64,000 bases of DNA from Fistulifera solaris (GCA_030295235.1 AP026126.1:1860001-1924000); one strand, 5' to 3'; numbered from the stretch's first letter, positions 35,646 through 46,840 are shown. Numbers and translations are program-made. Notes: generated by a model from the sequence alone, not told the origin.

Positions 35646-36397
35646 AGCATCGGTGATTACATTGTCATTAAATAAATACTTTGATCCTTGCTTCTTCTGT
35701 CAATCATCGGGAAATTTCGCTGATTTAAATTGAGTCTTTTCTGATGAAAGGAAGAACTTGACGACTTGTTCAGCAATCGTGTTGGCGTCTCAAGCCTTGA
35801 TTGGAAATTCAAGGAGTGTTCTGCGAAAGCAAATTAAATTGGTGTTTTCCATGTTTTACTCCTTTTCTGGAAGATCTATGCATTCCTCTTTGCGCCGCGC
35901 TACAGCAACAGACCACGAGTCTTTTTCTAGCATTGTTTTATCGATCCCTAGTCGTTGTCCTGGGAATGACAGCGGTATCCTTGTTCGAGTACCTGGCACA
36001 AAAGAATAGCACACCATCATCCAGTTTTCACAGAAAGGGTGTTTATCAGAAAATACGAAGTAGATGCCCATCCGATTAGAAGAGGCTCCACATCCAAACC
36101 CCAACTCGCCTCTAGTTTTGGATGCGACTCAGCGCCCAAATAATAGCATCAAAATCAACGAACTCCGCGTCATCCATCGAGTCGTCGTACGTCTAGCTAG
36201 GTCGCTTTTACTTTTTACTGCACTGTCATTATTTCTCCACATCACTTCCACTTTTCGCTCACTAATCTCGCGCGTAAAAAAAGCCAACGGTCTTTTTCGG
36301 CGGACTTTTGCTTCTTTCCTTCTTCTGTTGACGTGACGATTGCCGATACCTCACAATATTTACCATCATTATCGAAAGTAATCAAGTAGCTTTACCC

Positions 36398-37339
36398 ATG
36401 CCGTGGTTTAAATTGTATACAGAAGAGGAATTCTTCCGCATACTGTACCAGGAAGACGTTACCCTCATCCGATCGATTCTCTACTGGCAGGGAGATTTGG
36501 CGAATGCACAAGATACTGAATGGAGACCATTAGTCTATGCTTGCTACCGAGGAAACACTGAGCTTGCACGAGTAATTCTCGAGACAGCTGGGAAGCGATT
36601 AGATGTCAATCAAAAGGATCGAATGGGATATTCTTCACTCCTTTGGGCCGTTTCGAAAGATTTTTGGAATTGCTCATCTGTTACTGAACCGCAATGATAT
36701 TGACGTCAATGTAAGAAGCAAGGACAACGAAACACCTCTATTGGCCGCTACTCTTTACAATCGCCCCATGATAGTGCAGCGATTGCTCTTTCACGGAGCA
36801 CGTGTTGATGTACTAGACAAAGAGGGGAACTCTCCGTTGTCACGCGCGTGCCTCCAAAATCATTTCACAATCGCGCAAATGCTGCTCAACGCAGGGGCTA
36901 ACCCGAATACACGAAACTATCGCTGCGGACACACTCCGCTGGCGGAGTCCTGCATTTTAAACCACGATCACATTGTGAAACTGTTGATAGAGGCAGGAGC
37001 TGAAGTCAACGCTTTAAATCACCATGGCAGCACGCCGCTCCTCCTTGCTGTCAAAGCAGGATCCTTAAGTGTAATATACACACTTTTGAAGAACGGAGCT
37101 GGTAAGTCAATACATCTGCAGGTATATGAAATGATTCCCAAATTGAACTCAAAACTAAGAACTTGTTCACTGTGAATCAAGATTGGAACAAGGCAAATGG
37201 CACTGACGAGACACCCCTAACAGTGGCAGCCACTTGCAAGAATTTAGGAGCTTGTCAAGTTTTATTGCAATTCCAACAGTCTGAAGATAAAGGCCGGGCT
37301 AACGTGGGATTCATCTCGCTTTCGGGGCGTGAAGCAACA
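36398..37339 (+). CDS. Ankyrin repeat protein (frameshift near 36660; intron about 37101-37181)
   Basis: Multiple TPL/SPL-x-A ankyrin repeats with DVN/NPN linkers. Confidence 0.8.
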
Positions 37340-37849
37340 GCTGTAGCGGCGTGCACATAGGGCGAACAACAATGGTAGCACATTCCCTTACGCCACAAGG
37401 TAATAAAGATAGAATTAACGGGCAGTTTTCCCCTTCAAAAGTTAAGGGAAACGGTGTCGGCGTGGCTTTCATGATCGATTTAGATATTGCTGCCGACCAC
37501 AATCGGTTGCCCTCTTCAATTGCATACAATTAACTGAATATTCTAATGAATGGATGTGAAGATTGATCGCCGATTTTCTACGTTAACGAGTTCTTCGCTA
37601 GAGTTTACGTAGGGACAAGTGGCGCGCATCCTTCTAGTTGACCATCACAAGACCAGGTACCGGTACCGGTACCTACCGGTATTGGACTGTTTAAGTACGA
37701 TCCCTGAGCGTGCGACGTACGTACAGCGCCAAATCATCGCTATGCTATCATCTAAACACGCGCACTCGAAACACGTTGCCGCGACAGCAAACTATATTAT
37801 AAAATTACTTTTCAATTTCATCGACTGACCGAAAGTCACGCAAGGTAGT

Positions 37850-38495
37850 ATGCCTCCTACGTACACTCTTTACACCCCAGAAGCATCGTTTCGAGCGTTC
37901 GCTACTTTAATTGCCGCCGAATACAACGCCGTCGCGGTTGATATCGTCACGGATGTCACAGCCGAGGACGCGAAGTCCCCCGTTGGCAAGTTGCCAGTGC
38001 TGGAGACACCTTCTGGAGAAAAAGATTTTTAGTTGTTATGCTGCCGCCCGTTTCATTGCTGGCTTGCGACGTGATACTGGTTTGACTGGAAATTCACCTG
38101 TGGAAGCGGCATTCGTCGACGCATGGATGGACTTTGTAGCTCAAGAGTTGGAACTACCAGCATGTGCATGGTTTTACCCCGCTGCAGGATACATGCCATT
38201 CAACAAGACCAGCTACGAAAAGTCAAAAGCGGATCTTGCGAAAGCTCTGCAAGTTCTAAACGGACATTTGAACGGCAAAGCATATCTCGTCGGCAACCAA
38301 ATTACTTTGGCGGACATCGTCGTGGCGTCTACCCTCCTGTATCCCTTTAAACTGGTGGCAGACCCGTCTTATTTGAAACCTTTCGACTACGTTCTGAAAT
38401 GGTTCACGAATTGCGTCAGCCAGGAAGAATTTCAACAGATTGTCGGACAAGTCACGATGTGTCAAAAAGAAATCATGGCACCAGGACAGTCTTAA
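37850..38495 (+). CDS. eEF1B-gamma-type GST-fold protein (GST domains only); frameshift near 38020
   Basis: SPVGKLPVLET, AFVDAWMDF and YLVGNQITLADIVVA. Confidence 0.82.
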
Positions 38496-38785
38496 CAAAA
38501 TTTAGATCTAACTCTTTCAGTTTGTAGTGGGTGTTTGAATTGATTGTACACGTTATTACTTGCTATTGACCGTGCGGATCATTCGCGTATCACGTACTTA
38601 TTGAACAAACATAAACACAAATGCTGATTCAGATACCGTACGCCCAGAAATTAAGTGCCCAATCTGATGAAATCAAAGAGCAACCTCGTCTAGCCAGTGT
38701 GAATGTAATGGCCTAAATAGGGAGAGGCTAAGAGACAAGGGGTCATAGAGTTATGATCAGCGACGGCACTGACGTCTGTCATCTG

Positions 38786-38834
38786 GAGACTGCGGGAAAT
38801 ATGATAATTATGAAAAATGGAAATAACATGAAAA
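38786..38834 (+). repeat. Left terminal inverted repeat
   Basis: gagactgcgggaaatatgataattatgaaaaatggaaataacatgaaaa. Confidence 0.95.
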
Positions 38835-39777
38835 TTTATTGTTTAATTCAACTGCAAAATTTCGAAAAATGGACAAACTGCTGCTACTTTACATAAAAAT
38901 AGATCAAAATACGAAAAATGAGATTTTGAGTTTTTCGTGGCTGAGAACTTAGCTCACGCTTACCTGGTAGCGCGGTTTCAGCGTTACTGGAGTCGAATGA
39001 GGCCGTCAGTCCGCTGCCGATGCCTGTGACGTATATACGGACCGACGACACAAGATTGGAAAACCTTGAGCCGAGTCGAGCAGTCGAGGGTCCAAACTCA
39101 AAGGTAAATAAAAATCTCGATGTTCTTATCGTCGTTGTTCACTATCATCCACATTGTAGCACATTCAGTTTCTGTGTCTTCCTGTGATTGACTGTCGAGT
39201 GCGGCGTGTGAAGTGTGAAGTCTGAAGGAATAAAGGATTATTGTACGATCTGGAGTCTGGAGTCTGGAGTCAGAAGTAGGAAGTTGCGAAGTAACACTGC
39301 CAACTGCCACGCACCATTCAAGAAATTTTTATGTAGTAACAATGATCAAAAATAGCTTTGATTTTTATAGCCTGCCGCGTCATAAGCCCCTTCAACTAGT
39401 GCCACCTGCCGCAAATTGATTTCTGTATGCCGAATGCCGACTGCCGACTGTGAGAGAAATTGCAGTAACAATTAACAATTCAATTTGGAACGCGGTACTG
39501 TCATATGATCGGCTCGCACTCGTGACTTCTTCTATATCGTGAATAGTAGGTGGTCTTGGCGACATCGTCCTTTTCCACGCTAAGCATTACAGTCTCCATT
39601 GAGACTCTCTTAAGTAGTAGGAGAGTTTCATGGAAGAATTGCCGTTCTCTTCCTCTCTCCATCTCGCACTTTGATCGTCAACCTTCAATTATCACGAGGG
39701 CCGGGAACTCCCACAAATAATCACAAATCACTCTGCGGCGACATTTCAAACGACAATAACAACAGATCTTATCAGCA

Positions 39778-41189
39778 ATGCCAAAGAAAAACGACAACGG
39801 CGACGGCGTTGATGCGAATCTTCCCGAAATGGGGTGAGGGTACAAAGGGCTGGCACACTCTCATCTTCATGCTGAGCAAGAAGATGATTTCAGTCGAAAG
39901 TAAATCTGCTGGTGGTCAAGGACCGGCAGAGGTGAAACCATGAGCCCTCTCTTCAAATACAAATTGGCCAACTTTACCGCCAATCTTGATAAGATTCGGG
40001 AAGAATTGGAATGGGAAGAAAAAAGAGTGGCTCAAAATCTTGGACACCAACGAAGTCGACCCAGAAATTCTTGCAAAGGCCGGGAGCAGCGGGAAATGGG
40101 GGAAATGCGGAAAGCGAAGGTGGTGGTGACGACGACGACGATGATGATAACGGCGATGCCGGTTTGGGTGATCTAGACAATGAATTAGGTGGTAAGCGTT
40201 CTTCTGCTTCTAGATTTTTTTCTTCTATCTGACAAATTTCCATTTTTTACAGGCATGAACTTGGATCCGGAAGGTGATGCTGAGAAGAAAGCAACACCAA
40301 AGAAAGACATCAAGAAGCCAGACTGGGAAGAAATCGTGCTGCCGAACCTTGTGATCGGATGGATGGGTTCAAACCAGAAGCAGAATCTGACAGTTATCGC
40401 ACGCCTTCCTGCAGGGCTTCGCGCACTCCAGCTCCAGGAAGTGGTTTGAAGAGCTACGTCACTGCGTACATTGAAAATTCCCTCACAGCCACAATCGCTA
40501 TTGATGTGACTGACGATACTATCCATGATCCTATCAAATTCTCACGACAAATTCTGGGGTCAGCGCCAAATTCGGTACAGAGCACGTGAAAGTTGTCGGA
40601 CACCACACTGCAGTCCGTCTTCTCAAGAACAACAACCCTCGCAAGCGCATCATCAAAAAGTGCCGCATCCAATTGCCTTTTGAAGTCGAACTTCAGTGGA
40701 ATCCTGATATCCCGACGGTCGAGCAGCTGGTCATGCTCAAAATTGGAGTAGACGGTAGTCAAGAGCAAAACGTTGTCATGGAGATGAAGGAAGCCCTTGC
40801 AAAGGAATTCAAAAGCCACAACGTTTCTGTCGCATGGGATACTTGTTATGATGACGAACCAGTAGTAGCTACGAATGATGGAGCGGCCACTGGTGCTGCG
40901 GCAAATGTTCCACGCTCGGAAGATGATGATGAAGGCGATGAAATGGACATTGACCGAGACCCCAAGAAAACGCCAAGTCTTACGTTGCGAGACCGACCGC
41001 ACGAAGAACCTACGCGACTTTGTTGACCATCTGATGAAAGGAGTTCCGGTTGAGACTGTGAATGAGACAGATGAAAAGGAGAAGGATGACGGAAAGAAGA
41101 CAAAGACGGTTCCTATTGGCCAGCCGAAGATGGCTCTCATTACAAGACTGATACGAATCACGCCACAGCTTAAACGCTTACGAGGATAA
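39778..41189 (+). CDS. Transposon accessory gene A: putative N-terminal DNA-binding helical domain, acidic linker and the shared accessory domain; multiple frameshifts; intron 40192-40252
   Basis: Chain of overlapping + ORFs (39671, 39940, 40011, 40189, 40359, 40586, 40875); phase-consistent GT-AG intron; HVKVVGHH...LK...IQLPFEV...MEM shared with genes B and C. Confidence 0.7.
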
Positions 41190-41271
41190 AAGCTGATTGG
41201 CTTTGTCTAGTATATATTTCTACAACTATTATAGTATATCGTAATGTATTTGATGCTAGATTGCTTTATCA

Positions 41272-41911
41272 TCAAGTTTGAGGCATGCGAATATTGCGTT
41301 TGGCACCCTGAGCTAAAGGAGAATAGAAACCGTCGTATTCTCCTTGCATTTCCAAACCTGCTGTAATCTCAGGACAGTTCCGCGCTCCCATAAAAGCAAT
41401 GCGAGATCCACTCGGATACTCCTCCGCAATCGAACAAAAGTTAGGTAGTACCGCCATTGGTAGTTTCTGCTTGTGAACATAAACAATAGAATTTGCCATT
41501 GATGTCGTCTTGAGGTCTTTGATAGCCTTCATATGGGCGACAACCTTTGGGTGTGTTTCCGAGTAAGCAGCCCCGTTGTTGCGTGACACAGCACGCCAGA
41601 ATTCTGCAGGCATCATCATGTACGAATTGTCCCCCTTCATCCGAATCTCAGTTTCGGTCCGAGACTCGTTAATGGAGCAATGGACATCCGCTTGGTCAAC
41701 ACCAGAGAGCAGAACTGTCTGCTGTGACAATCGCTTGTACTCCAGGTCTTCCCATTTGTAAAGGAGTGAGCCTGGGAGTTTGACAGGGACTTCAATGGTT
41801 CTCACACGTTCGTCGTTATCGTCGTAGTCTGGGTCGAAGCATCAAAGAAAACGGATCAGTTAGCAAGAAATTGTTGAAGCCGATTAAACAGGAACGCTAC
41901 ATACCAGCCAT
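41272..41911 (-). CDS. Transposon accessory gene B (187 aa; intron 41829-41904)
   Basis: ATGGCTG, then intron gtatgt...gctaac...cag, then ACTAC gives MADYDDNDERVRTIEVPVKLP in frame with ORF 41272-41805. Confidence 0.8.
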
Positions 41912-42213
41912 TATGGATTTTTTCAAGAGGACATTGTCAACAAGATGCAAGATGCAATTGAAATGAGCTTGGCCAAGGTCAACGAATCGCAGCGATTTGC
42001 ATAGTGAGTGCTTGCTGCGGGCGCACTGCTCGTGCTCGGTCTTTTGTCAAAGGAGCGAAAAAAGCCCAGAACTTGCGAAGTGTGTGTGTCTTCTGTAAAA
42101 TAATAATGATGAATATCAAACTTCACTTGGTACGCTTCATTGTTCTATAGTTATAGATTAAACAAGCCCAGTACACTGTACTAATGAGCCAAAGGAATTT
42201 TATGTTTTTGTTA

Positions 42214-42450
42214 CGTTATGTTATGTTATGATTTGTTATGTTATGTTATGTTATGTTATGTTTTGTTATGTTTAGTTAGGTTCAGTTATGTTTTTACTAC
42301 TCGAAAAAAAAGATGGTACAACTTTTGTGTAGATTCTACTCGATTCACGAGTACATTTTTCAGACACGTTATGTTATGTTATGTTTTGTTATGTTATGTT
42401 AGGTTATGTTATGTTATGTTATGTTATGTTATGGTATGGTATGTTATGGT
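42214..42450. repeat. (TTATG)n pentanucleotide microsatellite in two blocks
   Basis: Runs at about 42214-42290 and 42368-42450. Confidence 0.95.
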
Positions 42451-42961
42451 ATTCTTTTCTGTAATGTTTTCAGTAATAAGTTATGATTTCAGTACAAAAT
42501 GTATATAGAGAACAAGGAACACGTTGAACTGTCAATTTCTCTGTATCTTTCTAAACGAGCTTCTTCCTTTGTCATACTCGATACTCGATACTCGATCCGT
42601 CAACATTAACGACTGATTACTGATCAAGATGCATACTCTGAGTTTCTACTGTAGCTCCATTCCCAGTTTCGCTTCCCCTCATTCTAGTGTACCGAGTGTG
42701 TGTGTGTGTGTTGAGTGTTGAGGTGTTGAGTGATGGATTGGACAGTCTCGAGGAGGAGGAGGAGTCGTCTCGAGTGTGTGTGTTTTTCGTGTGATGATGA
42801 TGAGATGAAAAGGACGACACGCTGGTGCGCACTGCCTGTTGCGGTTTCCGCCATCATCATTCTTGTCACAGCTCAAATCCGATTCTCCAGTCAAGCCCAA
42901 ATTCTTACGGAATCTCAGAAGCCTCACCAACTTTCAAAAATACACAAATATCACGAAAACC

Positions 42962-44281
42962 ATGTCTGAGTTTGGCGAGAGCGAAGAGACCGTCATTATT
43001 GAGGGGAAACTCCCCGCGTCCCTCATATATAGCTGGCATGATAGGCATGCCAATCTTCGCATTTCACAATACACAAACCTTCTTTCTGGTCTCCGTCAAC
43101 GAACCGCATATGGTAGAGAAATTGTTGAATGTTGTGTTGATGAAGAAGGGACTGAAATTATGATTGACATCACGGACTCTGCCATGTTCCGCGACGATTT
43201 CTTTGTCAACTACGGCAATAGAAGCGAGGATCACCCGCTTGTCGTTGCGCATAGGCTGAAAATGAAGGAACTCAAAGGTGACAGCAAGAAGATACTGTTC
43301 TCGCATCGTGAGACTATCGAAGAAGGCACGGTCACACTGAAAAGAATGGATGATATTGATTCTCAAGCCTTCCGTATCATTAGAAGGAACAATACATCTG
43401 GGGAAGAAACAGATACTGTTGCAGCAATTGAAATGGAAAGTAACTCTTTGAACTTTGTAGGTCAGGAGCACGGCCAGCTCAAAACACTTTCTATGCCGGA
43501 TCGAATGGACACGACTCCTTCTACTGAGTCGAGCCAGGAGCCGCAAATGGCTTTGAACGAGCTATCTGTGGCTGACATGATTCAGCAACCGAACCACCAG
43601 CCTGTCTTTCAAACACTGACACGCGATGTCACTGTAGCAAAGCAGGAACACAGCGAGGATTCTTTTATTTCTACTTTCGTGGAGCAGCAAACTGTTGTAC
43701 AGCAGCTTTCGAAAAGATCCATTGTAAGCTCGGGTGGCTCACTAACCAAAGCCCTTGTGTCGGATGCGTCTTATGAGATGAGCCGCAAGGTCAAAAGCCG
43801 CGGCCGAGATTCAACGTTCGACCAGACTTGGACGGATTCACAAAAGAAAACAGCAGACCAGCTAGTTACATCCGAAGTGCATGGCAACCTACCTGGGACA
43901 AACGACGGACTGATGTCAGCATTCAACGAGAATATGGGTGCTTGGTATACCATCAAGATAGGAGAAACAGCAGAGATACCAAGTGTTGCAGCAAGACTCG
44001 CGAATCTCCGCCCTACCCGACCATCATCTCTCTCAAGGGCGATAGCTGCGATACCAGCTAATCCTTCAGATGACGTAGCTGAACAAGCATTGGCTCTAAA
44101 TCAAGTGCCAATTGACGTGGAAATGAATTACGAATCACTGGGAAAACGTGATTTTGAATTTTTCAGTACGAGTGTTGACGCTGGAAAGGAACCGAGGCAC
44201 GGGGGGGAGATTGTTGTGTACGAGGGCAACCAAACTTCAAGTAACCTTGTTCACACTGCCAAGAAACCGAAAAGCCCTTGA
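42962..44281 (+). CDS. Transposon accessory gene C (439 aa): shared accessory domain plus long polar tail
   Basis: Intact ORF from ATG 42962; KLPASLIYSW...LLSG...SEDHPLVVAH...KELK homologous to gene B. Confidence 0.8.
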   Translation: MSEFGESEETVIIEGKLPASLIYSWHDRHANLRISQYTNLLSGLRQRTAYGREIVECCVDEEGTEIMIDITDSAMFRDDFFVNYGNRSEDHPLVVAHRLKMKELKGDSKKILFSHRETIEEGTVTLKRMDDIDSQAFRIIRRNNTSGEETDTVAAIEMESNSLNFVGQEHGQLKTLSMPDRMDTTPSTESSQEPQMALNELSVADMIQQPNHQPVFQTLTRDVTVAKQEHSEDSFISTFVEQQTVVQQLSKRSIVSSGGSLTKALVSDASYEMSRKVKSRGRDSTFDQTWTDSQKKTADQLVTSEVHGNLPGTNDGLMSAFNENMGAWYTIKIGETAEIPSVAARLANLRPTRPSSLSRAIAAIPANPSDDVAEQALALNQVPIDVEMNYESLGKRDFEFFSTSVDAGKEPRHGGEIVVYEGNQTSSNLVHTAKKPKSP

Positions 44282-44421
44282 TTCGCACCTGTAATCCTTG
44301 AGGAAGGCACCCACCAAGAACCAAAAATCTGAAGAAGAATAAATTGCGCGCCTATTCTCATTCATTCGATTAAAGTTTGCATGCTATAGGTTAATTGAAT
44401 GATATTTATCTACTTTAGTGT

Positions 44422-45352
44422 CTACTTCGGTAGAGAGTTGATAGGGTTATCGGTTTTTAGTCGAAGCTGTACAACCGATGCAACTGCTCGGAAGTAATAA
44501 ACATGCCGTTTCAATTCATGTCGGAATTGCTGGCGCAGACATCCAAACCGCTTAATTCGTTGATTTACGTTTTCATGACGCGCCAAAGATTTTCCAATCA
44601 AAATCAATTTCCCTTTCTGATGACCACGATTTTTTATTGTCAGCTGGGAGATCGAACGATAGCCTTGGTCTGCTATTCCTTTTTCACCCTTCGAAAGCTG
44701 ACCGGCAAGGTTTCGTCGAAAAATCTTTGAATCAGGAAATTCCCCGCAAGGAAAAGGGCCATTGATCCAGATCATTTCACTGTCAAAAAGCGAGACAGCA
44801 ATTTCATAACGTAGTCCGGCGCTTCTGAATTTGTGCGAATACCATTTGGGCGAAAACGGACTCGGTTCGTTAATCGGACAGTCAGTCCCATCAACCGAAA
44901 ATGTATGAATACCAGATTTCGTTCGGCTGTTCCACTTTATCTATAAGAAAACATATTGTTAGCGATATACAAAGTGCAACAGGTAATCAGCGCAAAAGAC
45001 TTACCAATCGAGTAGAGAGCAATGCCAGTGCAGTGATAAACTGGTCGGACCACTTTCGAAAGGTCTTTTCATCGCATCCGGCCATGCCACTTAAAACTTC
45101 CTCTGTTGCATAAACTTTCAATTTCAGTAGGGCCCAAAGCAGATGCTTGAAGCGTCCATTCTCAGGGACTTTCAATAAGATCCACAGCTGAGAGCATTGT
45201 GTTGGCGATACGCCAAAGTGCGACATGAAGCGTCGCGTTTGAACCAAAGTGGGCTTGTAGCTGCGCATGTCCAGCGACTCGCCCATTATGAAACACCCAC
45301 TTCTCAAGAACTCTCTAGTCTGATTAGAAGAATAATTAAACTGTATCTTCAT
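44422..45352 (-). CDS. PIF/Harbinger-type DDE transposase (about 288 aa; intron 44941-45004)
   Basis: Spliced product has an HTH-like N-terminus (HLLWALLKLKVY...DEKTFRKW), then SVDGTDCPI, WYSHKF..GLRYE, IADQGY and RHENVNQRIK, giving the D-D-E triad. Confidence 0.92.
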
Positions 45353-45846
45353 CGTAACTTGATGATCCAATCACCAAGAAAAATTCTACTTGTTGACAGC
45401 TGAATGGCTGAATGTGCGAGAGCGTGACAAATCGCAACTTTCTGTTTGTGTGTGTACGGAGTCGAGGACTCTATCGCCAAATGTCGTTGCCAGTTGCCAG
45501 GATGGTGGCATTGTCATATATGTGCTTGTGTATCGTTTCCACTGTACTTTGTAGGCTCCACGCTCCACGCTGCACGATTTTTTCAGCACTACGAACCACG
45601 ACTGAGGTCAGGATTTCAGTCTCTGTTGTTGGTCCGTATGACCGTCTCGTACTTGGTACGTAGCACGTAGCACAGTACTGCACCGGCAACTGCAGTGTGC
45701 AATTTTTCTACAATCTCTGCGAATTCAGAGTTCGCATCCAGGAAAAATTCAAAATCGCATTTTTTGTATTTTTTCTGTTTTTTAAAGAAAAATCAACAGT
45801 GCGCCTTGATTCAAAGGACATTTTACAGGTACATCAATGCCTATCT

Positions 45847-45895
45847 TTTTCGTGTTATTTCCAGTTTTCATAGTTATCATATTTCCCGCAGTCTC
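45847..45895 (-). repeat. Right terminal inverted repeat
   Basis: ttttcgtgttatttccagttttcatagttatcatatttcccgcagtctc is the reverse complement of the left TIR with 3 mismatches. Confidence 0.95.
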
Positions 45896-46078
45896 CTGTC
45901 GCTTCCGTTTTACTACTGAGTAAACAATAGCAAAATAAAAATTGCACCGCATCGCGTTCGCGACATAGACTGCATTATTTCATTTGGTCGAAAAAGTAAC
46001 AATAAAATGCTATCGAATATGCGATGCATGTCTCCATTGGGCTAAGGTTGCTTGCGTGAATAGATATCAACGACTAAA

Positions 46079-46840
46079 ATGCGGACTACTCTGCTGACTA
46101 TTTTGTTTTGCCTTCAATACAGAACGGGGCAAGGCTTTGTTCTCAACTCACATCGAGGAGGCGTTGTAAAGCGATTTCTCAACGACTACAGCGACGGTAT
46201 TCCTACAGAAATAAAAAACGCTGTCTTGAAGTCTGTCTATCTGGATATGGTCAATTTCAGTCGAGAAAATGGTAACCCGAATATCCCTTTGGGAAGTAAA
46301 GAAGGTCGGCAATGTGAGCAGCTTCGGCGTTTGGCTGTTCAAGGAAAGTTAAGCGAACAGGAAATGGAGTTGCTGCAGAAAATGAATTTTCGATTTTACA
46401 GTCTTGAACAGGTTTACGAAACTGCCGACTTTGACGAACTCTACGGTAAATTGGTGAAGTACAGGGATGAAAACGACGGGGACGTTTCACCACCAAAAAA
46501 ATACAACAAAGACCCAGAGTTAGGTGCCTGGGTCACAGGAATTCGCCGCAAAGGGAAAGACTACCTTGATCCGGATCACGTAAAGAAATTGGATGCTATA
46601 CAATTTGATTGGGTCAGTCCTCGTGGTTGCGGAAGCCAGTTCATGACGCAGTATCGCGATTTGCTACGGCGTAAATCACAAGGCGAGGACATATTTCAGG
46701 ACGAAGCAGCGCGTAAATGGTTACGAGCTCAACAAGAAGCTGCAAAGCGAGGCACTCTCAGTGAGACTAGGCGCCATTACATGGAAGCGCTCATGCAAGG
46801 AAAGGACTGGGTAACTGACAAATTGCCGCGACAGACGTGA
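46079..46840 (+). CDS. Helicase-associated (HA) domain protein with signal peptide
   Basis: FDELYGKLVKYRDENDGD...DPELGAWVTGIR...LDAIQFDW HA repeat; leader ending GQG-F. Confidence 0.75.
   Translation: MRTTLLTILFCLQYRTGQGFVLNSHRGGVVKRFLNDYSDGIPTEIKNAVLKSVYLDMVNFSRENGNPNIPLGSKEGRQCEQLRRLAVQGKLSEQEMELLQKMNFRFYSLEQVYETADFDELYGKLVKYRDENDGDVSPPKKYNKDPELGAWVTGIRRKGKDYLDPDHVKKLDAIQFDWVSPRGCGSQFMTQYRDLLRRKSQGEDIFQDEAARKWLRAQQEAAKRGTLSETRRHYMEALMQGKDWVTDKLPRQT

Follow-up and report, generated by a model that had tools for sequence, protein, structure and literature searches.

Background

DNA transposons of the PIF/Harbinger (PHIS) superfamily differ in their additional reading frames: according to a survey of these elements, PIF/Harbinger, Pangu and NuwaI/II have Myb/SANT, ISL2EU has YqaJ and Spy has none (PMC4482050). 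The same source gives the functions of the additional frames as unknown and a CWG duplication as characteristic of NuwaI elements (PMC4482050). The role and the replaceability of the second PIF/Harbinger protein are still an open question. Here we describe an element at positions 38786-45895 of a 64,000-nucleotide stretch of Fistulifera solaris DNA (GCA_030295235.1 AP026126.1:1860001-1924000; this whole stretch is called the window, and positions are counted from its first letter) in which three genes, A, B and C, accompany the transposase gene.

A relative of the Harbinger transposase has also been found together with alpha-crystallin domain (ACD) proteins in the Arabidopsis IDM complex. HDP1 and HDP2 co-purify with IDM1, IDM2, IDM3 and MBD7, of which IDM2 and IDM3 are ACD proteins; the study reports no direct binding of either HDP1 or HDP2 to IDM2, IDM3 or MBD7, and IDM1 joins both arms of the complex (PMC5339849).

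Results

The segment 38786-45895 is very probably one PIF/Harbinger (PHIS) element in which A, B and C are old paralogues, each with one domain of predicted HSP20-like fold, instead of a Myb/SANT gene. This 7.1-kb DNA transposon is bounded by 49-nt terminal inverted repeats (left, 38786-38834, plus strand; right, 45847-45895, minus strand), recovered by repeat detection as 50-nt arms with 94% complementarity, and is flanked by a 3-bp target-site duplication, CTG, at 38783-38785 and 45896-45898. The outer 22-mer of the ends is exact at both and has no further copy in the window (chance expectation 0). Gene A (plus), gene B (minus), gene C (plus) and the transposase gene (minus) all lie, in this order, between the one pair of repeats.

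The transposase gene (288 codons, 44422-45352, minus strand) consists of exon 1 at 45005-45352, an intron at 44941-45004 and exon 2 at 44425-44940, with its stop codon at 44422-44424; short GT..AG introns are found in the genes of this eukaryotic window. Its protein matched DDE_Tnp_4 (PF13359) at E 5.5e-9 (36.3 bits against a cut-off of 24.8) over profile positions 1-153 of 158, and has a computed isoelectric point (pI) of 10.1 and a net charge of +24. Only this one of the 108 six-frame frames of the element (at least 38 residues, 38786-45895) passed a Pfam cut-off. A Myb/SANT second frame, typical of the canonical groups, was found in none of the 108 frames at E<=0.01, a scan that covered the N-terminal part of gene A as broken pieces only. 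A 41-residue frame at 45711-45833 gave a Kazal_C7 match of 21.1 bits against a cut-off of 27, which was dismissed as chance.

Genes B and C carry the clearest copies of the accessory domain. Gene B (187 codons, 41272-41911, minus strand) has a 7-base exon 1 at 41905-41911 (ATGGCTG), an intron at 41829-41904, exon 2 at 41275-41828 and its stop codon at 41272-41274. The protein amounts to little more than the domain, which the predicted model and the fold searches place at residues 8-170 (41320-41808, minus strand), with a two-helix insert at residues 66-113 (41491-41634, minus strand). Gene C (439 codons, 42962-44281, plus strand) showed no intron, and RNA contigs of two sequencing runs match it without gaps (X2, 43122-44940; X3, 43042-44206). 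Its domain is N-terminal, at residues 6-168 (42977-43465, plus strand) according to the sequence comparisons, the predicted model and the fold search, with a helical insert at about residues 70-109 (about 43169-43288, plus strand), and is followed by an acidic, polar C-terminal tail of 274 residues. No relatives of this tail (residues 165-439) were found by sequence search, nor any match in Pfam or the ESM Atlas. The computed pI was 6.1 for B, 4.9 for the C domain and 5.2 for the C tail, and seven of nine outside relatives were also acidic.

B and C were 34% identical over 124 residues (E 6e-13), and the multiple alignment extended the likeness to about residue 160 of C. An exhaustive phmmer search with B of 1.84 billion representative sequences returned 10 proteins at E<=1e-3, three of them at E<=1e-30. 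The family thus comprises 10 representative clusters among 1.84 billion, without a Pfam match. All 10 relatives are 116-237 residues long, B-like and without a fused transposase, and a profile search of proteins of 416-2000 residues found no fused or longer forms of the family, which is weak evidence. When a profile was made from these 10 outside relatives only and run on the six-frame window, it recovered B at 9.3e-60 and C at 1.5e-21. No locus of a relative was confirmed in two metagenome scans and one viral scan. The resulting family alignment of 12 rows is shallow; its invariant columns, His93 and Lys107 of B, both fall in the two-helix insert, and the nearly invariant Lys95, Ala98, Ser110, Asn113 and His119 lie in or just past it.

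In the window, gene A (39778-41189, plus strand; exon 1 39778-40191, putative GT..AG intron 40192-40252, exon 2 from 40253) is broken into several frames. A third run, X1, from the same study as X2 and X3, gave contigs over the full element with its introns and spacers, and it therefore behaves as genomic DNA. When the X1 differences were applied by script, gene A became a single frame of 443 codons across the predicted intron, ending at about 41171-41173. The 12-row profile matched this version in a single stretch, profile positions 19-177 against residues 154-318 (E 2.1e-8, 2,454 frames), and the profile from outside relatives only also matched it in one stretch (E 5e-8, 2,454 frames). The shared domain of A is thus placed at about 40300-40795 (plus strand; approximately residues 154-318 in the X1 version), in the middle of the protein, whereas B is the domain alone and that of C is N-terminal. 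On the frames of the window itself the 12-row profile gave co-linear matches at positions 19-59, 64-97 and 103-177 (E 0.21, 7.7 and 0.0042), and the outside-only profile matched at 19-59 (E 0.32) and 104-179 (E 0.0029). Gene A was not detected by tblastn with B or C as query.

These pairwise and profile matches indicate that the shared domain of about 155 residues is real in A, B and C, as the first-pass annotation of this locus had proposed. The paralogues are old by the same comparisons, because B and C are only 34% identical and A is reached by profile only, and this age speaks for a long co-residence under selection.

The differences behind the broken frame of gene A are local, the rest of the element being nearly identical in X1. 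Between the X1 contig 38786-42199 and the window there are 12 single-base indels, every one inside 39741-41126, and 15 substitutions, 14 of them inside 39800-40883; the X1 contig 42463-45895 differs by 3 substitutions and 1 gap. Introns as the source of the frame changes were ruled out, since X1 differs there by single bases, and a plain pseudogene was not upheld, the X1 version being open through 443 codons. Decay of this copy, recombination or poor assembly could account for the patch 39741-41126. Several of the differences form clusters that simple homopolymer slips do not explain (for instance around 39935-39937 and 40415-40420).

Spliced contigs of X2 and X3 joined 41828 to 41905 without gaps and 44940 to 45005, confirming the introns of gene B and of the transposase gene, respectively, and contigs of these runs matched the window gap-free over the transposase gene, B and most of C. 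All three of these genes are transcribed. Ahead of 44387 the X2 and X3 contigs have a T-run loose end, consistent with polyadenylation of the transposase message near 44387. A freshwater metatranscriptome (X5) contained pieces of B and C at 41181-41704, 43015-43188 and 43917-44112, with five of the six X5 pieces at 99% likeness or above; the host organism and transcripts of B and C are therefore present in environmental RNA. Over gene A no contig was found in X2 or X3 and X5 held one 31-base piece (40128-40158), loose on both sides, which is neutral as to expression.

The fold of the domain was predicted from the 12-row alignment, which the B and C models share, so that they are not independent. 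The AlphaFold2 model of B had a mean predicted local distance difference test score (pLDDT) of 83.3 and a predicted template modelling score (pTM) of 0.75, and four of the five models had a mean pLDDT of at least 81. Its strands are at residues 11-15, 22-27, 32-39, 49-53, 59-65, 114-122, 142-149 and 152-163, and its helices at 74-83 and 94-106. The model of the C N-terminal domain, made with C first in the same sequence set, showed the same order of elements (pLDDT 76.7, pTM 0.71). In a Foldseek search of the PDB with the B model, 32 of the 33 rows shown were small heat-shock protein (HSP) or CS domains, the best being 3w1z_B at 1.8e-3, and no match reached E<=1e-3. Among viral models (BFVD), four of the top five were named SHSP, HSP20 or CS (E 5e-3 to 1.6e-2). 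The same superfamily was thus returned from three libraries by two aligners (PDB by Foldseek, PDB representatives by VIA-align, and BFVD), with superpositions that cover whole target domains at a root-mean-square deviation (rmsd) of 2.5-3.0. The predicted structure is a compact antiparallel beta-sandwich that can be superposed on solved ACDs and, as a sandwich of seven to eight strands, on solved CS domains. These results suggest that the domain adopts an HSP20-like beta-sandwich, of the superfamily of the small-HSP alpha-crystallin and CS/p23 domains.

The insert, of about 48 residues and two predicted helices, is specific to the family and falls between strands 5 and 6, where non-metazoan ACDs have their dimerisation loop. 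HSP20/ACD proteins also carry a C-terminal I/V-x-I/V anchor motif; an [IV]-x-[IVLM] triplet, which is frequent by chance, was present in the tail of five of the 11 tailed members. A predicted complex of the B and C domains scored 0.00 in a run made without controls, which is neutral either way.

At the level of sequence this relation was not seen. Neither B, C nor the pieces of A had a Pfam match above cut-off, none of the 12 aligned members matched HSP20 (PF00011) or CS (PF04969) at E<=1, the family profile matched no PDB sequence at E<=10, and the ESM Atlas gave no usable match with B. A PDDEXK_3 match of B (E 0.048, under the cut-off and in one of the 12 members) was rejected as chance. The first-pass annotation had called an ACD/HSP20 sandwich with a helical insert from motif strings of A and B, all of which are present in the window: TVLLSGVDQADVHCSINESRTETEIRMKG and HKQKLPMAVL of B in the minus-strand frame 41272-41841, and IARLPAG, VTAYIENSLTATIAID and CRIQLPFEVE of A in three frames (40189-40449, 40284-40589 and 40529-41026, respectively). 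The motifs do not rise above chance as sequence, and the likeness is supported only in the predicted structure, where structure prediction and fold searches of the kind that it had proposed returned an HSP20-like/CS sandwich for B and the C domain. Its motif alignment puts TVLLSG..VHCSI..TEIRMKG at strands 3-5 and IVYVHKQKLP at strand 6, in agreement with the model.

Other features of the element concern its arrangement and copy number. Genes B and C are transcribed away from each other, and the spacer of about 1 kb between them holds two (GTTAT)n-type pentanucleotide arrays (42190-42465); short-read contigs break at these arrays, those of X1 stopping at 42199 and 42463. Gene C and the transposase gene are convergent, with stop codons at 44279-44281 and 44422-44424, and one unstranded X2 RNA contig passes through both. 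X1 contigs start or stop within one base of both element ends (38786 and 45895), and a separate 33-base X1 contig at 38786-38814 has half depth, which fits several copies or a presence/absence polymorphism of the element, with flanks that differ among copies or alleles.

Outside the element, the 253-residue product of the first gene beyond the right end (46079-46840) contains a helicase-associated (HA) domain (PF03457, E 1.5e-16). Two host genes on the left change frame in mid-gene: an ankyrin-repeat gene (36332-37175; Ank families in 36332-36694 and 36603-37172) and a GST_C-type gene (37829-38495; frames 37829-38029 and 37911-38492). Because these switches adjoin A/T runs, they hint at assembly indel errors or very short introns.

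Discussion

We propose that the element supplies non-catalytic subunits of its own in A, B and C. With a pI of about 5-6, these acidic proteins would bind the very basic transposase as its adaptors or holdases. They would hold the transposase soluble or assembled, or tie it to the host chaperone or chromatin machinery, in a manner that may be likened to that of CS-domain adaptors and of the ACD proteins IDM2 and IDM3, and would not be DNA-binding stand-ins for the Myb protein. A protein-binding role is favoured over DNA binding because B, C and most of their relatives are acidic and the transposase is strongly basic. That A, B and C serve the transposase in this way is possible, and we hold it with less than even confidence; the account of the locus as a whole, which is the best explanation that we can offer, stands not far short of an even chance.

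As the chief alternative, A, B and C could be passengers, captured or enclosed host genes of a small lineage-specific family with no role in transposition, the transposase acting alone or with a partner encoded elsewhere. Such an origin would suit the outside relatives, all 10 of which are short and B-like with no fused transposase, as well as the lack of any hit in the profile search of longer proteins, and Spy elements, of the same superfamily, are described as encoding a transposase only (PMC4482050). On the other hand, three deeply diverged paralogues lie here within one inverted-end pair with a matching target duplication, and canonical members are stated to require a second element-encoded protein (PMC2836001, PMC4482050), of which no other is detectable in this element. 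We consider the passenger explanation rather unlikely.

Two further alternatives concern the nature of the domain. The fold call could be a modelling artefact, the true structure being of another mixed alpha/beta type or a generic sandwich with a superficial HSP20 likeness. The alignment of 12 rows is shallow, Pfam HSP20 and CS and the PDB profile search lend nothing at the sequence level, and the confidence of ESMFold2 was low, but the agreement among the AlphaFold2 models of B, and of three libraries and two aligners on one superfamily over whole domains, makes an artefact very improbable. Were the proteins instead true small HSPs, they would have a divergent alpha-crystallin domain, form large homo- or hetero-oligomers and serve as general stress holdases, close to the hetero-oligomeric ACD partners of the first-pass annotation. 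Compared with small-HSP ACDs such as that of Sulfolobus Hsp20.1 (4rzk) and M. jannaschii Hsp16.5, which the model resembles in its sandwich, the domain of A, B and C differs in lacking a sequence-profile match, in the insert of about 48 residues past strand 5 and a 19-residue loop past strand 6, and possibly in lacking a clear C-terminal I-x-I anchor; we regard this reading as improbable. The first-pass interpretation is partly supported. CS/p23 domains (PIH1D1, Sgt1, Shq1, p23, NudC) differ from the family likewise, in that the helical insert is found only in the A/B/C family and a Pfam CS match is lacking in it.

If A, B and C are adaptor or holdase subunits, as we prefer, a PIF/Harbinger lineage would have swapped its Myb/SANT partner for three proteins of HSP20-like fold, a dedicated chaperone/adaptor module that would place HSP20-fold partners at the level of the transposon. 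This wider claim is rather doubtful. The locus is nonetheless a natural test case, being an apparently intact, transcribed element without a detectable Myb/SANT frame and with three paralogues of predicted chaperone fold, and it could show whether a protein-binding module can serve a transposase in place of a DNA-binding one. The models would also give a small family without a Pfam match a place in the HSP20-like superfamily, as one of its decorated members.

With described PHIS elements the element shares the DDE_Tnp_4 transposase, the inverted ends and the 3-bp duplication, whose CTG fits the NuwaI-type CWG; unlike them, it has three extra genes of predicted HSP20-like fold and no detected Myb/SANT frame (PMC4482050). 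In a literature search, the titles and abstract openings returned mentioned no transposon-encoded HSP20 or CS protein. To that extent the accessory gene set is undescribed for PHIS elements, and by predicted structure the unnamed family would join the HSP20-like superfamily.

The parallel with the Arabidopsis IDM complex, drawn in the first-pass annotation, stands as regards the co-purification of HDP1 and HDP2 with ACD proteins, but not as a direct contact (PMC5339849). No sequence relation of A, B and C to ACD proteins was detectable; the parallel is suggestive only, and common descent with the plant ACD proteins is not indicated. In both systems a Harbinger-type transposase or its relative and HSP20-fold proteins would belong to one functional unit, which in Arabidopsis, unlike here, is made of domesticated host genes. 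Should the chaperone/adaptor module prove true, HSP20-fold partners of Harbinger-type transposases would not be limited to the domesticated IDM complex of plants, and the element is a concrete object on which to ask whether the plant Harbinger-ACD association has a counterpart in a transposon.

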